This document shows positions 11,002 through 41,539 of a stretch of DNA of 64,000 bases, in pieces. Position numbers and translations under genes: made by a program. Source of the DNA: an uncultured Bdellovibrionales bacterium (lineage in GTDB: Bacteria > Bdellovibrionota_C > UBA2361 > SZUA-149 > CAZDWZ01); the NCBI GenBank assembly GCA_964405665.1, contig CAYOOT010000006.1:3350-67349 (forward strand). The letters run 5' to 3'. Within the stretch, counting starts at the first letter, position 1. Each line of letters starts with the position of its first letter. The notes beneath the pieces were generated by a model. The model did not search any database and was not told where the DNA came from. It saw only the letters and a list, made by a program, of their open reading frames with translations.

Positions 11002-12510
11002 ATGGATAGAGTAGCGGATTTACTAGATTCTCAACTAAACGGTGTTTCTACCTCAACGAAAACCAATTTTAAACCGACAGAAAGTGATATTCCAAATAAA
11101 AATTCAAAAATTAATTTTTCTAATGAGGATTTTAAAGAACTTTGGGAAGAAGCTTGCCATGAGATCAGCAAAGAAATCGATCAACAGCTTTTTAATACCT
11201 GGATAAAAGTACTGAAAATATCAAATTTAGAATTACCCCTTGATAATTCTAAAGAAGCCAAAATTGAATTAACAGCACCAAACAAATTTAGTTGTGCTCA
11301 TATTGAAAAAAATTATCAACAATTAATTGCTGATTCTTTCTCTAAATTACTTTTAGTTAAAATTAAACTACATTTTTGTTTTGATAAACACTTTAGCCCG
11401 GCTAACGATCCTCTTTTAGAAAAAACTGCCACCAGCCCTATTTTAAAAAAGAAAGCTTCCTTGTTTTCTGAAAATAGGTTGCAAAAACCTGATGAAACCA
11501 ATCTTAATCCTAAATATAATTTTTCCAATTTTGTAGTTGGTTCCTGTAATCAATTTGCGCATGCCGTTAGTCTTAAAGTAGCGGAAAGTCCTGGAACTTC
11601 TTTTAATCCTCTCTTTGTTTATGGGGGAGTAGGATTAGGCAAGACCCATCTGGCTAACGCCATCGGTAATTCTACAAAAAGACAAAAGAAGAAAGTATTA
11701 CTGGTTAGTTCTGAAAATTTTGTCAGTGAACTTATCGCTTCCATCAGAAGCAATAAGATGGATTCCTTTAAAAGTAAGTTTCGTTCACTGGATTTATTAA
11801 TTGTTGATGATATTCAATTTATTATTGGCAAAGAACGAACTCAAGAAGAATTTTTCCATACCTTTAATGAACTTTATAATAAGCATAAACAAATAATTAT
11901 CACTTCCGATAAAATGCCCAATGAATTAATTGGACTGGAAGACAGATTGAAAACAAGATTTGCCAGTGGACTTTCTGTTGATTTACAATCTCCTGACTAT
12001 GAAACAAGAGTGGCGATTATTGTTAATAAAGCCGTTGCAGAAAAAGTAAATTTACCGGAAGAAGTTGCCAGACTACTTGCTTGCAATATTACTTCGAATG
12101 TTCGGGAACTAGAGGGAGCAGTAAACCGTTTGTTTGCCCTAAGTTCTGTTAATAAAACTAGTATTGATTTAAAACTGGCTGAAGATGTAATTTCTAGTCT
12201 TTCTTTAAAAAAGAAAACAAAAGAAATTAATTTTGAATTGGTCAAAAAAATAGTTGCTGAGCATTTTAATGTCAGTCTTAATGACATTCTTGGAAAAAGA
12301 AGAACTCAACACATTGCAGCAGCAAGACATGTTTGTATGTATTTTTGCAGAAAGCTGACAAATTATTCTTATCCGGAAATCGGTGCTTACTTTGGCGGAA
12401 GAGATCATTGCACGGCAATTCATGCCTATAAAGTAGTAGTCGAGAAATTAACTCTTGAGAAAAGTTTTTCTGATGAACTAGAAAAATTAGAAAACAAAAT
12501 AACCTCTTAG
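11002..12510 (+). CDS. dnaA: chromosomal replication initiator DnaA
   Basis: AAA+ Walker A GGVGLGKTHL, Walker B LLIVDDIQF, and the C-terminal DNA-binding domain (…HIAAARHVCMYFCRKLT…). Start placed at the ATG at 11002, which has an AGGAAGG RBS, rather than the upstream in-frame Met at 10960. Confidence 0.93.
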   Translation: MDRVADLLDSQLNGVSTSTKTNFKPTESDIPNKNSKINFSNEDFKELWEEACHEISKEIDQQLFNTWIKVLKISNLELPLDNSKEAKIELTAPNKFSCAHIEKNYQQLIADSFSKLLLVKIKLHFCFDKHFSPANDPLLEKTATSPILKKKASLFSENRLQKPDETNLNPKYNFSNFVVGSCNQFAHAVSLKVAESPGTSFNPLFVYGGVGLGKTHLANAIGNSTKRQKKKVLLVSSENFVSELIASIRSNKMDSFKSKFRSLDLLIVDDIQFIIGKERTQEEFFHTFNELYNKHKQIIITSDKMPNELIGLEDRLKTRFASGLSVDLQSPDYETRVAIIVNKAVAEKVNLPEEVARLLACNITSNVRELEGAVNRLFALSSVNKTSIDLKLAEDVISSLSLKKKTKEINFELVKKIVAEHFNVSLNDILGKRRTQHIAAARHVCMYFCRKLTNYSYPEIGAYFGGRDHCTAIHAYKVVVEKLTLEKSFSDELEKLENKITS

Positions 12511-37100: not shown

Positions 37101-37206
37101 TATTTATTCTTTGGTTGCCGCTGATCATAAAAAAGATGTTACCAAGCAAGATGAAGATTTAAAGCATTTTTCTGGTAATGGACAAGTTGTGAATATTTCT
37201 TCTTGA
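34114..37206 (+). CDS. RND-superfamily multidrug efflux permease (AcrB/MexB-like)
   Basis: 1030 aa with a 12-TM pattern, two large periplasmic loops and conserved TM4 motifs (…GLVVDDAIVMLENIERH…). Confidence 0.9.
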   Translation: MKLTDLFIKRPVLAICINILIFVAGYKSLQSLNVRQYPKSDIAIVTIKTAYVGADADLVRGFITTPLERVIASADGIDYLESQSQQSLSQITAHLKLNYNTNDALTQIQAKVAQVRNDLPPEAEAPIINVENSDNRIASMYLSFYSNDIPQNKITDYLTRVVQPKLSSVAGVQKADILGARTFAMRVWLKPEKMASYNISPSQVKDVLAANNFLSAVGSTKGSMITVNLVANTDLKSQEDFNNIVVKKDADSFVRLSDIADVVLGAESYDEEVRFDGEAATFMGIWVLPNANSLDVISAVRELVPDIEKNLPPGMKVGIPYDATQYIRNAIHDVIKTLVETICIVILVIFLFLGSIRSVLVPVVAIPLSLVGATTIMMAFGFTLNLLTLLAIVLAVGLVVDDAIVMLENIERHVNEGMKPKEAAIVAARELVGPTIAMTITLAAVYAPIGIQGGLTGALFKEFALTLSGAVIISGIVALTLSPMMSSKLLKSHQESSRFKTMVENFLDGLRARYLKLLKISLNYRPAIITAALMLVLCLPILYMFSKKELAPREDQGIIFGIVQSAPNSSIDQNILYTNEMTKVYKSFPEYQHTFQLTMPNSGFSGMLTTPWNQRSRTTQQMEGEMWGKMSVIPGIRAIVTTPPPLPGGSDFPIEFIISSTLEPERIYDYANQLVMKAFQSGKFMFADTDLKYDLPQSEITLDRDKVSSLGLSMRTVGEDISTLTGGNYVNRFNIQGRSYKVIPQAKRIDRLNPEQLENFYITGPNDKLIPLSTVAKISNRIQPRSLNRFQQLNSAKITGVINPGVNIDQGLKVLEEEAHKILPKDFNIEYAGESRQLRKEQNAFAATLFFAVILIFLVIASQFESFRDPLIILAGSVPLALAGALIFVFFNATSLNIYSQVGLVTLVGLIAKNGILIVEFANKQQEKGLTKLEAIVEACGVRLRPVLMTSVATVVGHFPLILATGAGAGSRNSIGAVLVSGMIIGTFFTLFVLPTIYSLVAADHKKDVTKQDEDLKHFSGNGQVVNISS

Positions 37207-37212
37207 TACTTT

Positions 37213-37713
37213 TTAAAACCCAATCCTCCTTTTCTTAGGAGACACTGGCTTTTGTAATTCTTCAATAATCTGAATTATCGCCTTAGCATGCTCATCTGTT
37301 CTTGCTTCAATAGACTTAAGTCTTTTAGCTAAAGCTTCATTAGAAAGTAGAAGCTCTCGAAGTTTGATAAAAGAGCGTATAATTTGAACACTGACAATTA
37401 CGGCTCTTTCACTTTTAAGAACAGCAGAAAGCATTGCCACACCTTGTTCAGTAAAGGCATAAGGTCTATCTCTCCTACCGCCATATTGTTTTCCCATCCC
37501 CAATCTTTTTTCCAATTCCCGAACTTCTTCAATAGATAATTGAAACATAAAGTCATCTGGAAAACGCTCTAGATTTCTCGAAACAGCCTTATTTAAATCT
37601 CTGGTACCAACTTGATAAAAATGTGCAAGATCACTATCGATCATTACTTTTAATCCTCTAATTAAATAAATCTTCTGTTGTATTATCTGAGAAGAAAGCA
37701 ATTCTATTTTCAA
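37213..37713 (-). CDS. ORF6N-domain protein (KilA-N-related DNA-binding, phage-antirepressor-like)
   Basis: IYLIRGLKVMIDSDLAHFYQVGTRDLNKAVSRNLERFPDDFMFQLS…YAFTEQGVAMLSAVLKSERA matches the ORF6N domain pattern. Confidence 0.65.
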   Translation of the reverse strand: MKIELLSSQIIQQKIYLIRGLKVMIDSDLAHFYQVGTRDLNKAVSRNLERFPDDFMFQLSIEEVRELEKRLGMGKQYGGRRDRPYAFTEQGVAMLSAVLKSERAVIVSVQIIRSFIKLRELLLSNEALAKRLKSIEARTDEHAKAIIQIIEELQKPVSPKKRRIGF

Positions 37714-37738
37714 TTAGCACATTACAAAAATAACTATT

Positions 37739-37801
37739 ATACCAGGCACTTACAAACTTGATGTTCCAATTTGGAACATCAAGTTTGTAAGTGCCTGGTA
37801 T
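37739..37801. promoter_or_regulatory. perfect 63-nt palindrome (31-nt arms) upstream of the ORF6N gene; a degenerate second copy lies at 37846-37886
   Basis: ataccaggcacttacaaacttgatgttccaa-t-ttggaacatcaagtttgtaagtgcctggtat. The second copy is tacaaacttgaagttccaatttggaactcaactttgcaa. Shared core TTCCAATTTGGAA. Confidence 0.7.
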
Positions 37802-37981
37802 TCTTAATAGAAACTCATTAGGAAAAACTGCAATAATTTAAATAGGTTACAAACTTGAAGTTCCAATTTGGAACTCAACTTTGCAAAATCTCTAAGATTA
37901 TTATTTTTTCTTGCTGATTATAAATTAGCAATTATTATATTCGCTAAAGCTGAATAAAAGGTACTTCAGAAAAATTATTTT

Positions 37982-39700
37982 TTAATCACAAGCTGATCCA
38001 AAACAATCCTCGCAATATACAGGCTGACAATGGTTCGGAGAATAGGCAGTAGTGATATTTTCAGCACAGTGATCACATTGTCGCATAAATATTTGTCTAG
38101 TGGTGCGACTATTTTGACGTAGCTGATGGCGACAAAAAAAGCAGCTTGCCGGTAGTGCTAGTCCATTGAGTTTGTGCCATTCTAATTCTAATTGTTGAAG
38201 TCGATATCCACGACTACAAACATCACAACGTAAAGTTGCTTTGATCAAACTTTCCTCTGCTTGTTCTAGGTTATCTGGCAATTCAACTTTATCACTTACC
38301 AGAGTAATGTCCTTGTCATCTTCCCAGGAAAAACCCAGAGAACGTGCTTCTTTAGCTGAAAGCGGATAATGAACCTGTGCTTGCGTAAGATTATACGGAA
38401 AGTCTGAAAGCGATGGGGGAAAGAATTCACCCCATTCACCAGTATGCTTCATGTGATTTATGAGCTTCGGGACTAACAGAAGATAATCACTCTCTGAATA
38501 CTGTTTATTCAGAATACAATACTGATTATGCTTTAGGCTAATGCAACCAAATAAGTGCGCACAATCATATACGCAATCCATGCAGTAGGCTAAGTTATGC
38601 ACTCCAAAACTGCAGGCGAAACAACAGCGAATTTGATATGCCTTAGGCCCGCTATTTGCAGTTTCGATAATTAATTCTCCACCACCGCATTCATCACAAT
38701 CAAGAAATCCTTTCATGCTGGCAAATGCCTGGGCAGCATACATGCCTTCCCATAAATGGTGAGAATCAAAACATTTAATTGCATCCTTACATTCTATTAG
38801 ATAATTACCACTTACATTTTCATTGCGCACGCCTAGTAGATATCGCTCTGGAAATGATTTTCGAAAGACTTCAAATAGTTTACGGTATTTCTGCACACCA
38901 CTCCGATTTTGCAACTCTTGAACTAATTTCTTGTAAACACTGGGTGTGCAAGGTTTATTTTGAAAATAATATTCCTTATTGCGCAAATTGCAGCACAAAA
39001 AACAATTTTTACAACCGATACAGTTTCGAAGAAAATAAGAATCAGAACAATTTTCACATTGAGAAATGAAAGCACTATTGTAGCAACGGATACAATCTAT
39101 TGCTTCGTAACATAACTCCGAATCTTGAACTCGCAAACAGTCCAGAGAAGATTTTGAATTATCTAATCCATATGAGTAAAGACAGTCATGGTCATGATTC
39201 GAGTTAAACACCAGATAACAATTCTTTAACGCTCCTGTAAAATTAGTATAGGCAGAATTTTCAGAGTTGATATAATCTGTGTGCAGTGCAACATGCGGAA
39301 CAACATTTTTAAGTTCTTTTAATTGCTCAAAAAATGGCCTGGAAAAATCAATCTTCCGACCATACTCTCGCCCGTCAAATTTATCGCTATGCCAATATTC
39401 TGAATTAAAAACAGGATGTCGTACCTCATTTGAAAAATGACTAATGATTGACTTTCCAGTGGCATCACAATTACGTTTTACTAAATGTAATTGATTAAGA
39501 TGAAGAAGCCGTCTCTGAGAACGGCAGCGAGGACATTTTTTTGGATCAGGCATGCCAGATTTCTCGCGAAATTCATGTTCCCAATGTGTTATTGCAAATA
39601 CTTGAGAACAGTCACTGCAATTTTGTTGAGATATTATGTGACCAATCAAACCTGAACTATTATTATTTGCATCTATGACCATGAATATATAATATATCAA
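37982..39700 (-). CDS. Cys-rich family protein, copy C
   Basis: 572 aa. N-module CSDCSQVFAITHWEHEFREKSGMPDPKKCPRCR…LHLVKRNCDATGKSIISHF, Cys-rich cores ending CFLCCNLRNKEYYFQNK and …CISLKHNQYCILNKQYSESDY, C-module RCDVCSRGYRLQQLELEWHKLNGLALP…YCEDCF. Confidence 0.8.
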   Translation of the reverse strand: MIYYIFMVIDANNNSSGLIGHIISQQNCSDCSQVFAITHWEHEFREKSGMPDPKKCPRCRSQRRLLHLNQLHLVKRNCDATGKSIISHFSNEVRHPVFNSEYWHSDKFDGREYGRKIDFSRPFFEQLKELKNVVPHVALHTDYINSENSAYTNFTGALKNCYLVFNSNHDHDCLYSYGLDNSKSSLDCLRVQDSELCYEAIDCIRCYNSAFISQCENCSDSYFLRNCIGCKNCFLCCNLRNKEYYFQNKPCTPSVYKKLVQELQNRSGVQKYRKLFEVFRKSFPERYLLGVRNENVSGNYLIECKDAIKCFDSHHLWEGMYAAQAFASMKGFLDCDECGGGELIIETANSGPKAYQIRCCFACSFGVHNLAYCMDCVYDCAHLFGCISLKHNQYCILNKQYSESDYLLLVPKLINHMKHTGEWGEFFPPSLSDFPYNLTQAQVHYPLSAKEARSLGFSWEDDKDITLVSDKVELPDNLEQAEESLIKATLRCDVCSRGYRLQQLELEWHKLNGLALPASCFFCRHQLRQNSRTTRQIFMRQCDHCAENITTAYSPNHCQPVYCEDCFGSACD

Positions 39701-40499: not shown

Positions 40500-41539
40500 C
40501 GGTAAAATTTTGTATTACTATAGTCATGACATTGGTAACAAGTAGGAAACCAACGCATACTACCTTTGTTGATCAGGATTGTAGAAACATTTCTTATTTC
40601 ATTGGGAAATTTATTACGAAGCTCTTCAATAAATTTGTTGTAAGTAAAATAGGTAGGAGTTTGTAATTCTATTTCATTTCTACATTCTCCAATTTGCTGA
40701 ATGTATTCTGTGACATCAGGGTGCTTGTTGCAAAATGAAAATAATTCTTTTTCTTTTTTGACATCAAAACTATTGAGGTACAACTGACATTTAAAGAAAG
40801 TTCGATTAATTTTTTCTAAATCTATTTCAGTTCTGTATCCGACAATTATTTTTTCTGACTCCAGCTTTTCTAAACGATAATTGATTAAGGCTGGACTACT
40901 AGCACATACTTTTGCTAAATCACTAAGACTGATTCGAGCGTTTTGTGAAAGCTCTAAAAGAATATTAAAATCTGTTTGATCCAAAATAGATTTCTGAGGA
41001 ATTTCTCCGACATGTAAATAATGAGTTCCAGCAGAATGAAAATACTTTTTTCTAAAAATCCAAAAATTAACAACAGTTAAAACACTAGTGTTAATGATAA
41101 TATCAGATACCGGACCAAGGATTCTCCCCTGCTCTTCGTAAAACTCAACAGGTGATTCTGCCGCAATGGAAACAATTAAATCCCAAGCTCCGTCACATTC
41201 CACCACCCAAAATACCTTTTTTTCCTTAGCAAGTGTTGCAATAAATTTTCTTCTTCTACTTTCTTCCCCGCCAAAGCGAATATAAGTTTTATAAAGTGTG
41301 AGTCCCAATTTAGAAAGATTGACAATTGTTTTATAACCGGAAATCACCCCCAATTCTTCTAAACGTTTAATCCGATATTCTACTCGATCTCTTCCTTGTT
41401 TAAGAGTCCTGGCTAATTCTGAAAAGGAAGCACGAGCATTGTGATCTAAGGAGTAAAGAATTTTCTGATCGAGATTATCCAGGTTAATATCATTTTCGGA
41501 ATTTTTCTGCATATTTTGCCAAAAAAGTAAGAAATACAC
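40496..41539 (-). CDS. tandem Lrp/AsnC-family protein (two HTH_AsnC + RAM-like units in one polypeptide)
   Basis: Two AsnC-type HTH segments are recognisable: DQKILYSLDHNARASFSELARTLKQGRDRVEYRIKRLEELGVISGY and LDQTDFNILLELSQNARISLSDLAKVCASSPALINYRLEKLESEKIIVGY. Each is followed by a RAM-like segment. Confidence 0.55.
   Translation of the reverse strand: MYFLLFWQNMQKNSENDINLDNLDQKILYSLDHNARASFSELARTLKQGRDRVEYRIKRLEELGVISGYKTIVNLSKLGLTLYKTYIRFGGEESRRRKFIATLAKEKKVFWVVECDGAWDLIVSIAAESPVEFYEEQGRILGPVSDIIINTSVLTVVNFWIFRKKYFHSAGTHYLHVGEIPQKSILDQTDFNILLELSQNARISLSDLAKVCASSPALINYRLEKLESEKIIVGYRTEIDLEKINRTFFKCQLYLNSFDVKKEKELFSFCNKHPDVTEYIQQIGECRNEIELQTPTYFTYNKFIEELRNKFPNEIRNVSTILINKGSMRWFPTCYQCHDYSNTKFYR

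Follow-up and report, generated by a model that had tools for sequence, protein, structure and literature searches.

We examined a 64-kb stretch of DNA (64,000 nt; hereafter the window) from contig CAYOOT010000006.1 of an uncultured Bdellovibrionales bacterium, in which a small gene for an ORF6N-domain protein is preceded by a perfect 63-nt palindrome and a decayed second copy. Comparison with related loci indicates that the window palindrome represents an element spread across a whole superfamily, which is maintained at the DNA level and usually found inside genes. The features of the locus are as follows.

37213..37713, minus strand: ORF6N gene, 166 aa, identified by its Pfam ORF6N match
37714..37738, minus strand: spacer of 25 nt between copy 1 and the start codon, from sequence comparison
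37739..37801, no strand: palindrome copy 1, perfect (31+1+31), proposed cis-site of the ORF6N protein, from a repeat search
37752..37788, no strand: conserved inner core of copy 1, ACAAACTTGATGTTCCAA-T-TTGGAACATCAAGTTTGT, from sequence comparison
37846..37886, no strand: palindrome copy 2, decayed, from a repeat search and folding
37897..37924, minus strand: weak sigma-70-like match (TTTATA, 16 nt, AATAAT), from a promoter scan

The minus-strand open reading frame (ORF) at 37213-37713 matches Pfam ORF6N (E 7e-30), and the palindromes therefore lie upstream of that gene, in an intergenic gap of 268 bp (37714-37981) that holds both of them and beyond which lies the stop codon of a gene for a cysteine-rich protein. 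The start of the ORF6N gene is supported by an independent metagenome assembly of the same locus (L086; comparison loci carry L numbers throughout): the start codon at 37713, TTG in the window, is ATG at the same place in L086 (L086:547-549), and both palindromes are unchanged and in the same orientation. The public gene call, P0001, begins 23 codons further in and so gives the protein a shortened N-terminus; an exact-protein look-up of the TTG-initiated form returned no record, the protein being present only as this shorter call.

As the initial annotation described, copy 1 is flawless: a repeat search found its arms (37739-37769 and 37771-37801), of 31 nt each, to be 100% complementary on either side of a central T. 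The related imperfect palindrome that it reported is likewise real, with one arm intact and the other decayed: the 28-nt core TTACAAACTTGA(T/A)GTTCCAATTTGGAAC has a 96% identical match at 37847-37874, and the partner arm has degenerated through mismatches and the loss of one base. Folded as single-stranded DNA, copy 1 reaches -35.3 kcal/mol (z -16.4) and copy 2 -11.1 kcal/mol (z -4.5). Dinucleotide-preserving shuffles of the window give an expectation of 0.00 for the 26-nt core with up to three mismatches, which occurs at these two places only; for the 15-nt palindrome centre they give an expectation of 0.36 occurrences. The two copies are themselves 28-nt inverted repeats, 93% complementary, around 56 nt. 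Copy 1 ends 25 nt from the ORF6N start codon, its centre being 57 nt upstream of that codon and about -78 relative to the codon 1 inferred from the profile.

A strong hairpin downstream of the stop of the cysteine-rich gene (37982-39700), and on the same strand, might be taken for an intrinsic terminator or transcriptional insulator of that gene. We regard this as effectively excluded, in agreement with the initial annotation. The stem is followed by AATAGTTA, without a T-run, and is AT-rich (36-39% G+C); a scan of 37600-38050 gave no terminator-like site; and an identical core lies inside coding sequences elsewhere. Among the closest relatives described below, the distance to the upstream stop is 50 nt in L087 and 198 nt in L089, and the upstream gene of L088 is divergent, whereas the distance of 25-40 nt to the ORF6N start is kept.

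Promoter scanning returned two sigma-70-like sites against 2.5 expected in shuffles. The match at 37897..37924 lies upstream of both palindromes, so that, if it is used, both copies are transcribed into the 5′ untranslated region (UTR); a promoter-like match between the two copies is at chance level. Set beside an invertible promoter switch of the fimS kind, the locus has inverted repeats around this match, no recombinase nearby and a single orientation in the two assemblies. No consistent -35/-10 pair was found among the four close relatives, either by eye or by scan, and the spacer between palindrome and start codon (25 nt in the window, 27-40 nt in relatives) is without conserved sequence or a clear Shine-Dalgarno motif.

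The core of the palindrome, ACTTGAnGTnCCAAWTTGGnACnTCAAGT, is common to ORF6N genes across phyla. An exact search for the 26-nt core in one genome per species gave five matches, in metagenome-assembled genomes (MAGs) of Lachnospiraceae, Acetatifactor and Ignavibacteria. In three of the five the core lies inside an ORF6N gene, where it encodes T-N-L-K/M-F-Q-F-G-T-S-S between the FMFQL and GGRRxLPYAFTEQG blocks; in L004 it is upstream of the ORF6N gene, as in the window. The first 35 nt of the core at 37752..37788 are identical to ORF6N coding sequence in L003, from an Acetatifactor MAG, which reads T-N-L-M-F-Q-F-G-T-S-S, although the L003 and window proteins are distant. We did not find the element described in the literature searched, whose coverage is incomplete, and which offers absence of evidence only.

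We sampled this association in two directions, using metagenomic loci that are partly redundant. Eighty viral-contig loci (L006-L085) were fetched via ORF6N peptides outside the motif, and a palindrome was counted if it had arms of 10 nt or more around a CAA-[A/T]-TTG centre; of the 85 loci L001-L085 about 79 have one, and a strict palindrome pattern run against viral contigs gave no matches. Conversely, 78 metagenomic loci (L090-L167) were fetched by the long-arm core alone, and 72 of them have an ORF6N ORF, with the palindrome inside the ORF in 64, upstream in seven and downstream in one. These 78 loci were picked by the pattern itself and were therefore kept out of the selection tests below. 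By comparison, a 1.05-Mb set of DNA chosen for another gene family held five comparable palindromes and no ORF6N genes, and the element is thus specific to ORF6N genes and not a generic repeat, an outcome that favors the initial annotation.

The palindrome has preferred positions. Of 223 copies, 131 are in-gene at profile positions 66-77, 62 lie some 50-270 nt upstream of codon 1 and four are just downstream; 88% of all copies are inside an ORF6N gene or within 400 nt of one. The usual place, near codon 70, encodes N-L-[KRM]-[SCF]-Q-[IF]-[GV]-T-S or, in another frame, L-V-T-N-C-D, and many lineages have a proximal upstream site, at about -52 to -78 from codon 1. In the protein of the L010 ORF6N gene (start near 2501) the motif is duplicated (LRSQIMTAERGTEDETNLRSQFVTS), as if the palindrome region had doubled, and L014 has two tandem ORF6N genes, around 1939 and 2546.

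Codon choice within the in-gene copies indicates that selection acts on the palindrome DNA and not on the encoded peptide. Across an unbiased sample of 38 unique genes, 10-14 of 14 positions pair, compared with about 8 of 14 in synonymous-codon shuffles, and for 23 of the 38 the observed pairing was reached by none of 300 such shuffles. The arms vary with compensation (GTTCC/GGAAC, GTGCC/GGCAC, GTCAC/GTGAC, ATCGC/GCGAT and others) around a constant CAAWTTG centre, with the consequence that residues are coupled, S with V, C with G and F with G. A second reading frame is also used, in which GGGACTTATCACAAATTGTGATAAGTTCC encodes G-L-I-T-N-C-D-K-F and which in L004 reads E-L-V-T-N-W-H-R-F. A Bacteroides-type group has the variant centre GGGGTATCACA-AAA-TGTGATACCCC. 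Non-coding copies have the same sequence as coding ones.

The spectrum of mismatches bears on the molecule under constraint. On the sense strand G·T and A·C mismatches number 13 and 12 in upstream copies and 16 and 18 in in-gene copies, with no strand bias; together with the lack of one-sided changes in the four closest loci, this places the constraint at the DNA rather than the RNA level. We therefore consider it quite unlikely that the element is a hairpin in the ORF6N mRNA, in the 5′ UTR here and within the ORF in most relatives, setting stability or translation as an RNase III substrate with a 22-32 bp stem, a block to exonucleases, or the protein's site on its own message. The element is upstream of or inside the gene and almost never downstream, and so is likely transcribed with it; a weak promoter-like site lies upstream of both window copies; the stems are long enough for RNase III; and in L115 the proximal palindrome ends 9 nt before the likely ATG, where a hairpin would affect initiation. 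Yet typical conserved RNA helices show the excess of G·U-compatible mismatches and the one-sided changes that are missing here, the central base occurs in both states in gene orientation, and solo copies lie in either orientation beside unrelated genes. Rfam scans also gave no family: for the window region only microRNA-precursor models appeared, well below threshold and spurious, as for any generic long hairpin, and seven related loci yielded nothing but one tRNA.

The same symmetry occurs in the homologous RhuM genes (Pfam Virulence_RhuM), which like ORF6N genes are placed in PDC-S05, a PADLOC class of phage-defence candidates made up of single genes of both types. RhuM loci (L169-L288) were fetched via a downstream motif with a degenerate codon pattern, a single-protein search in viral contigs having given one locus only. 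An in-gene palindrome is present at the homologous position in 85 of 101 non-redundant loci, with arms of 10-17 nt; arms and centre vary with full compensation, and the peptides encoded are mirror-image ones (AKFA, SKME, EKIS, RKIR and KESL). In 89% of the genes the observed symmetry was reached by at most 5% of synonymous shuffles. The RhuM centre is GCAAA-W-TTTGC or more variable, in contrast to CAAWTTG in ORF6N, a difference that points to the encoded protein, and not to a universal host factor, as what recognizes the site. Upstream palindrome arrays were not found at RhuM loci. A RhuM gene of Escherichia coli SMS-3-5 (L294:3729-4763; NC_010498.1 4865478-4866512), with a 10+5+10 palindrome, lies within a type I restriction-modification (R-M) locus. 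In L158 the two palindrome types are adjacent: a RhuM-Fic gene (1080-2063) has a RhuM palindrome centred at 1274, and a solo ORF6N-type palindrome, CCAAACTTGAGATGCCAATTTGGCACCTCAAGTTTGG (2065-2099), starts 2 nt past its stop codon.

In the subclade of the window protein the in-gene copy has decayed and a longer copy sits upstream. The closest homologues, 65-72% identical, have a drifted motif (ELEKRLGMG, ELEKKLGII, ELKAQLSIS), and slightly more distant ones keep the canonical DLKFQFGIS or DLRCQIGSS. In the window, L087, L088 and L089 the in-gene motif region shows 7-8 of 14 pairs (8 of 14 in the window), the level of synonymous shuffles, and all four loci have a palindrome of 45-65 bp ending 25-40 nt before the start codon.

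Window: arms 31+1+31, 0 mismatches
L087: arms 32+1+32, 0 mismatches
L089: arms 32+1+32, 1 mismatch
L088: arms 22+1+22, 0 mismatches

The inner arm, TTAYAAACTTGAKRTTCCAA, is conserved in the four loci; the outer arm differs (ATACCAGGCAC, GATTTCAAGGGC, GATTTCAATTAG) yet stays complementary. Of the 32 pairs, ten carry changes in both arms and none in one arm alone, values reached by 0 of 500 shuffles and lost when the pairing register is shifted. One palindrome copy per gene thus seems to be enough, to judge from this subclade. We rely on the window clade alone for this point, and a table of in-gene loss against upstream gain was left unused, because its threshold of at most one mismatch misclassifies in-gene copies with two.

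Gene and palindrome also travel together. In L087 the flanking genes are a PF1765-like gene, with purD before it, and one for a U32 peptidase; L088 adjoins a divergent cytochrome c gene and L089 an AsnC-type regulator gene; among the four loci, similarity extends from the palindrome to the stop codon and no further. In a relative with an RND pump 96% identical to that of the window, the ORF6N gene is present at the window's locus. In a relative with a pump 84% identical (MAG GCA_018062925.1) a NUDIX-like gene occupies the locus, and the ORF6N gene and palindrome are elsewhere (L087); a relative with a pump 73% identical has no ORF6N gene at this locus. Unrelated contexts and presence or absence at one locus together make the ORF6N gene and its palindrome a portable accessory module, and speak for the initial annotation over a gene held in synteny across a whole clade. 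The suggestion that ORF6N genes are phage or mobile-element cargo is compatible with this, with no integrase among the flanking window genes checked and no blastn match of the palindrome region to plasmid and phage collections. The further suggestion that the palindromes are the ends of a small insertion holds in part: the palindrome marks the 5′ edge of the module, but at the 3′ edge no terminal repeats, target duplication or matching element were found. There the convergent stops of the RND pump and ORF6N genes are 6 nt apart in the window (37204-37215) and about 41 nt apart in the 96% relative (L289:3771-3817), which implies an indel of about 36 nt at the module's 3′ edge.

Some ORF6N genes have more than one upstream palindrome: arrays of two to six different CAAWTTG palindromes, 30-60 nt apart, lie between the upstream gene and the ORF6N start. 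L115 has six (11880-12150, minus strand), downstream of argG; L121 has four or five (1650-1830); and arrays occur also in L100, L106, L120, L127, L136, L144 and L164. In L115 and L121 one array member each is identical, or nearly so, to the in-gene copy. By Pfam, the gene upstream of the L115 array encodes argininosuccinate synthase and is not hsdM. By analogy with these arrays, copy 2 of the window may be either a weak auxiliary site or a relic. Solo palindromes also occur: four or five, of different arm types, lie at L001:2265-3340 and about 5353, in a Lachnospiraceae MAG (JAGKTQ010000014.1), at the edges of two metallophosphoesterase genes and one AAA-ATPase-like gene in a cassette-like layout. 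The 8 kb of L001 contain no ORF6N gene.

The centre of the palindrome is itself variable. Between near-identical ORF6N loci the central base differs, A for T, in 19% of pairs, compared with 1.4% per flank site; the pairs are phylogenetically non-independent, and flips were seen in at least three lineages. Over 400 nt, L060 and L061 differ at the palindrome centre alone. A flip of the centre yields an I/F polymorphism in ORF6N and a K/N polymorphism in RhuM, and is the footprint expected of hairpin-loop inversion at the DNA level.

These flips, the covarying outer arms and the portability of the module raise the possibility that the element is a structure-driven hairpin or cruciform serving recombination, mobility or replication rather than regulation. 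It could be a site for insertion or exchange of the ORF6N module, or an inversion or deletion switch between copies, recognized by shape as attC sites and the ends of IS200/IS605 elements are. Outer arms that covary without sequence conservation or wobble intermediates would fit such a role, as would a palindrome at the 5′ edge of a block common to the window, L087, L088 and L089 in unrelated contexts, a gene that some close relatives have at this locus and others lack, the solo copies that L001 carries at gene boundaries, imperfect copies that look like hybrids of two arm types (L115 #2, L162, L144), and the inverted arrangement of window copies 1 and 2 around 56 nt. We nevertheless consider it unlikely. 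No recombinase, HUH nuclease or integrase is consistently nearby, and none is present at the window or at L087-L089; the 3′ edge has no partner site or target duplication; and the segment between the window copies has the same orientation in both assemblies of the locus, with no recombinase nearby. Loop inversion and arm homogenization occur at any long palindrome and need not reflect function, and the ORF6N-specific CAAWTTG centre is most simply explained by the ORF6N protein itself.

Palindromes can outlast their reading frames. Pseudogenized or split ORF6N genes with stop codons a few codons from an intact palindrome occur at L163:3166-3702 and L151:1242-1805, and the same is seen at L130:6880-7260, in L146 and at L116:827-1366. 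Such genes (L163, L151, L130/L146, L116) could be read as signs of a neutral or selfish by-product, either a relic of decayed ORF6N fragments or a palindrome kept by its own hairpin-templated repair, functionless for the present gene; the solo copy of L113, flanked by motif-like codons, and the decay of window copy 2 would agree. We think this very unlikely. Read in the coding frame, the core of copy 2 has stop codons on its flanks, and the long outer arms of copy 1 are not ORF6N-like, so that neither copy can be a mere piece of the gene. Four loci with unrelated flanks, and with proteins only about 70% identical, have retained both the position (25-40 nt before the start) and the inner arm, and codon-level upkeep of coding copies across phyla is hard to reconcile with neutrality.

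The ORF6N protein of the window matches the whole Pfam ORF6N profile (PF10543) over residues 13-98, with 103.6 bits against a cut-off of 27.8, as well as three PADLOC PDC-S05 profiles (PDLC04856, 8.2e-55; PDLC04869, 1.3e-54; PDLC04849, 5.3e-37) and a PHROG 'anti-repressor' family (E 4.5e-25). An AlphaFold2 model (mean pLDDT confidence 80) has a compact N-terminal domain followed by a 50-residue helix (102-154). Foldseek ranked Dachshund/Ski winged-helix DNA-binding domains first (probability 0.98, E 0.05) and MarR-type regulators next; a sequence search of solved structures gave nothing significant. The protein is thus predicted to comprise a winged-helix-like N-terminal domain and a C-terminal coiled coil, which gives it the look of a dimeric DNA binder. 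The stretch that holds the palindrome in relatives corresponds to the end of a helix (61-71) and a low-confidence loop (72-84), the least confident part of the domain (pLDDT about 60), which by this model can tolerate almost any sequence.

One PDC-S05 representative, of the RhuM-domain type, has been reported to lower T7 and T5 plating about 1000-fold in E. coli B, and the passages on PDC-S05 in that report make no mention of a palindrome (bioRxiv 10.1101/2024.09.26.614923). The window protein resembles this class in its three profile matches and differs in type, the assayed representative being a RhuM gene and the window's candidate defence gene an ORF6N gene. The window gene lies outside any recognizable defence island or R-M locus, its neighbors being the RND pump and zinc-finger, tRNA_SAD-domain and AsnC-type proteins, and L087-L089 and L115 likewise have housekeeping neighbors.

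The best-supported reading, which we put forward tentatively, is that the palindrome is the ORF6N protein's own cis-acting DNA site, capable of forming a cruciform and probably autoregulatory, and that gene and site form one portable module. An operator for ORF6N itself and a cruciform-forming element were both among the initial suggestions, and both are compatible with our results. ORF6N would dimerize through its C-terminal coiled coil, placing two winged-helix-like domains on the half-sites T-N-N-C-A-A and T-T-G-N-N-A, together with the flanking ACTTGA block one helical turn away. Binding close to the promoter would repress the protein's own gene and so hold a candidate defence protein at a set level. 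The long Watson-Crick arms and AT-rich centre would allow extrusion of a cruciform or hairpin, which probably aids recognition or ties regulation to supercoiling or single-strandedness; these features, together with the perfect pairing of the arms, the strictly Watson-Crick compensation and the centre flips, suggest that extrusion contributes. Copy 2 would be an auxiliary or relic site, like the upstream arrays elsewhere.

Several observations weigh against a cognate operator. Our analysis is wholly computational, and every statement on function is inferred from it; the Foldseek matches are weak by E-value, and promoter predictions around the palindrome are no better than chance. An operator of 13-20 bp needs no perfect 31-nt arms, and covariation of the outer arms without sequence conservation points to structure or arm-to-arm copying and not to base-specific contacts. 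Of 41 unbiased genes scored with an in-gene copy, 23 had no upstream palindrome, and a repressor bound some 200 nt inside the ORF would have no way to act other than as a roadblock, an unusual general design. The arrays, moreover, mix arm types, and only some members match the in-gene copy.

There is an appreciable chance that the element is something more unusual than a cognate cis-site. One such possibility, which we hold doubtful, is that the palindrome, and not the peptide that it encodes, is the conserved functional core of the ORF6N/RhuM (PDC-S05) superfamily, each gene having within it, or just upstream as in the window, a cruciform or hairpin recognized by shape by the gene's own product. 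The system might then sense DNA secondary structure, supercoiling or single-strandedness, such as arises in phage replication or DNA entry, and the element would mould the protein: the mirror peptides AKFA, RKIR, SKME and LRSQIVTS would be its imprint, and the I/F and K/N polymorphisms that of its centre flips.

None of the known systems with which we compared the element is the family to which it belongs. Sites for DNA-binding proteins can lie inside the genes of those proteins, as parS does inside spo0J/parB of Bacillus subtilis and many other bacteria, and can form centromere or operator arrays, as in F sopC and R1 parC. The ORF6N element resembles parS in being a palindromic site within the coding sequence of its own (here putative) DNA-binding protein, conserved at the nucleotide level across taxa, and resembles the sopC and parC arrays in that palindromic arrays beside a gene can double as autoregulatory operators. 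However, ORF6N is not ParB, matching Pfam ORF6N only and having no partner NTPase, and its site lies in the coding region of the DNA-binding domain, is read in several frames, has arms that vary with full compensation and reaches 63-65 bp. Small dimeric regulators, among them the C-proteins of R-M systems with their C-boxes and phage Arc, Mnt and Cro, act on autoregulatory operators typically of 14-20 bp. The inverted repeat near the regulator's own start, the predicted dimeric winged-helix protein and the mobile or defence-associated genes are common to both; in contrast, the symmetry of those operators stops at the contacts, whereas ORF6N arms are 22-32 nt, perfectly complementary and covarying in their outer parts, and in most relatives the sole copy is about 200 nt inside the ORF.

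Structural elements offer further parallels. Like integron attC sites, the element keeps its structure while its sequence varies, and it shares with them imperfect palindromes, a short core and positions at gene boundaries (as in L001); unlike them, it has the core CAAWTTG and not GTTRRRY, most copies lie inside one gene family, and no integron integrase or cassette array is present in any locus examined. Repetitive extragenic palindromic sequences and bacterial interspersed mosaic elements (REP/BIME), with their RAYT transposases, are also short palindromes, sometimes in intergenic tandem arrays, tied to one gene family. The ORF6N element is not dispersed as they are, however, the 64-kb window holding two copies, both at the ORF6N gene, and the protein is without an HUH/Y1 transposase domain. 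Replication origins lie within initiator genes in pT181 (repC) and phiX174 (gene A), likewise cruciform-capable cis sites inside the gene of a protein proposed to act there; ORF6N has no Rep/HUH motifs, and its gene is chromosomal, without replicon features.

Few unexplained small genes are as common in defence islands, prophages and integrative elements as those of the ORF6N and RhuM families, and the palindrome provides a simple experimental handle on them. A DNA-level palindrome kept within the coding sequences across phyla and in several frames accounts for the 'signature' peptide motif of the family as a by-product of symmetry in the DNA, and calls for caution in annotation: conserved peptide motifs in the Pfam ORF6N and RhuM profiles may reflect cis-acting DNA. 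The window clade is a natural experiment in which the site has been relocated upstream and extended to 63-65 bp. Should the element prove to be an ordinary operator, a likely binding site would still have been defined for a very large, uncharacterized family of DNA-binding proteins.

The remaining features of the window concern its neighboring genes. On one side of the ORF6N gene are genes for a membrane fusion protein, for which an exact-protein look-up gave no record, and the RND pump; on the other are the zinc-finger protein, a tRNA_SAD-domain protein (AlaX-like by our reading) and the AsnC-type regulator. The immediate upstream neighbor (37982-39700) encodes a cysteine-rich protein of 572 aa with Pfam zf_Tbcl and zf_Tbcl_2 treble-clef matches at both ends, below the gathering score, and no match to defence-system profiles. 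The nearest named relatives of the host are MAGs labelled Proteobacteria, Deltaproteobacteria, Oligoflexia or Bdellovibrionales. A weak CAATTTG-centred palindrome, TACATTCTCCAATTTGCTGAATGTA, with 12-nt arms and two mismatches, is present within the AsnC-type regulator gene (40681-40705) and is probably a chance occurrence.

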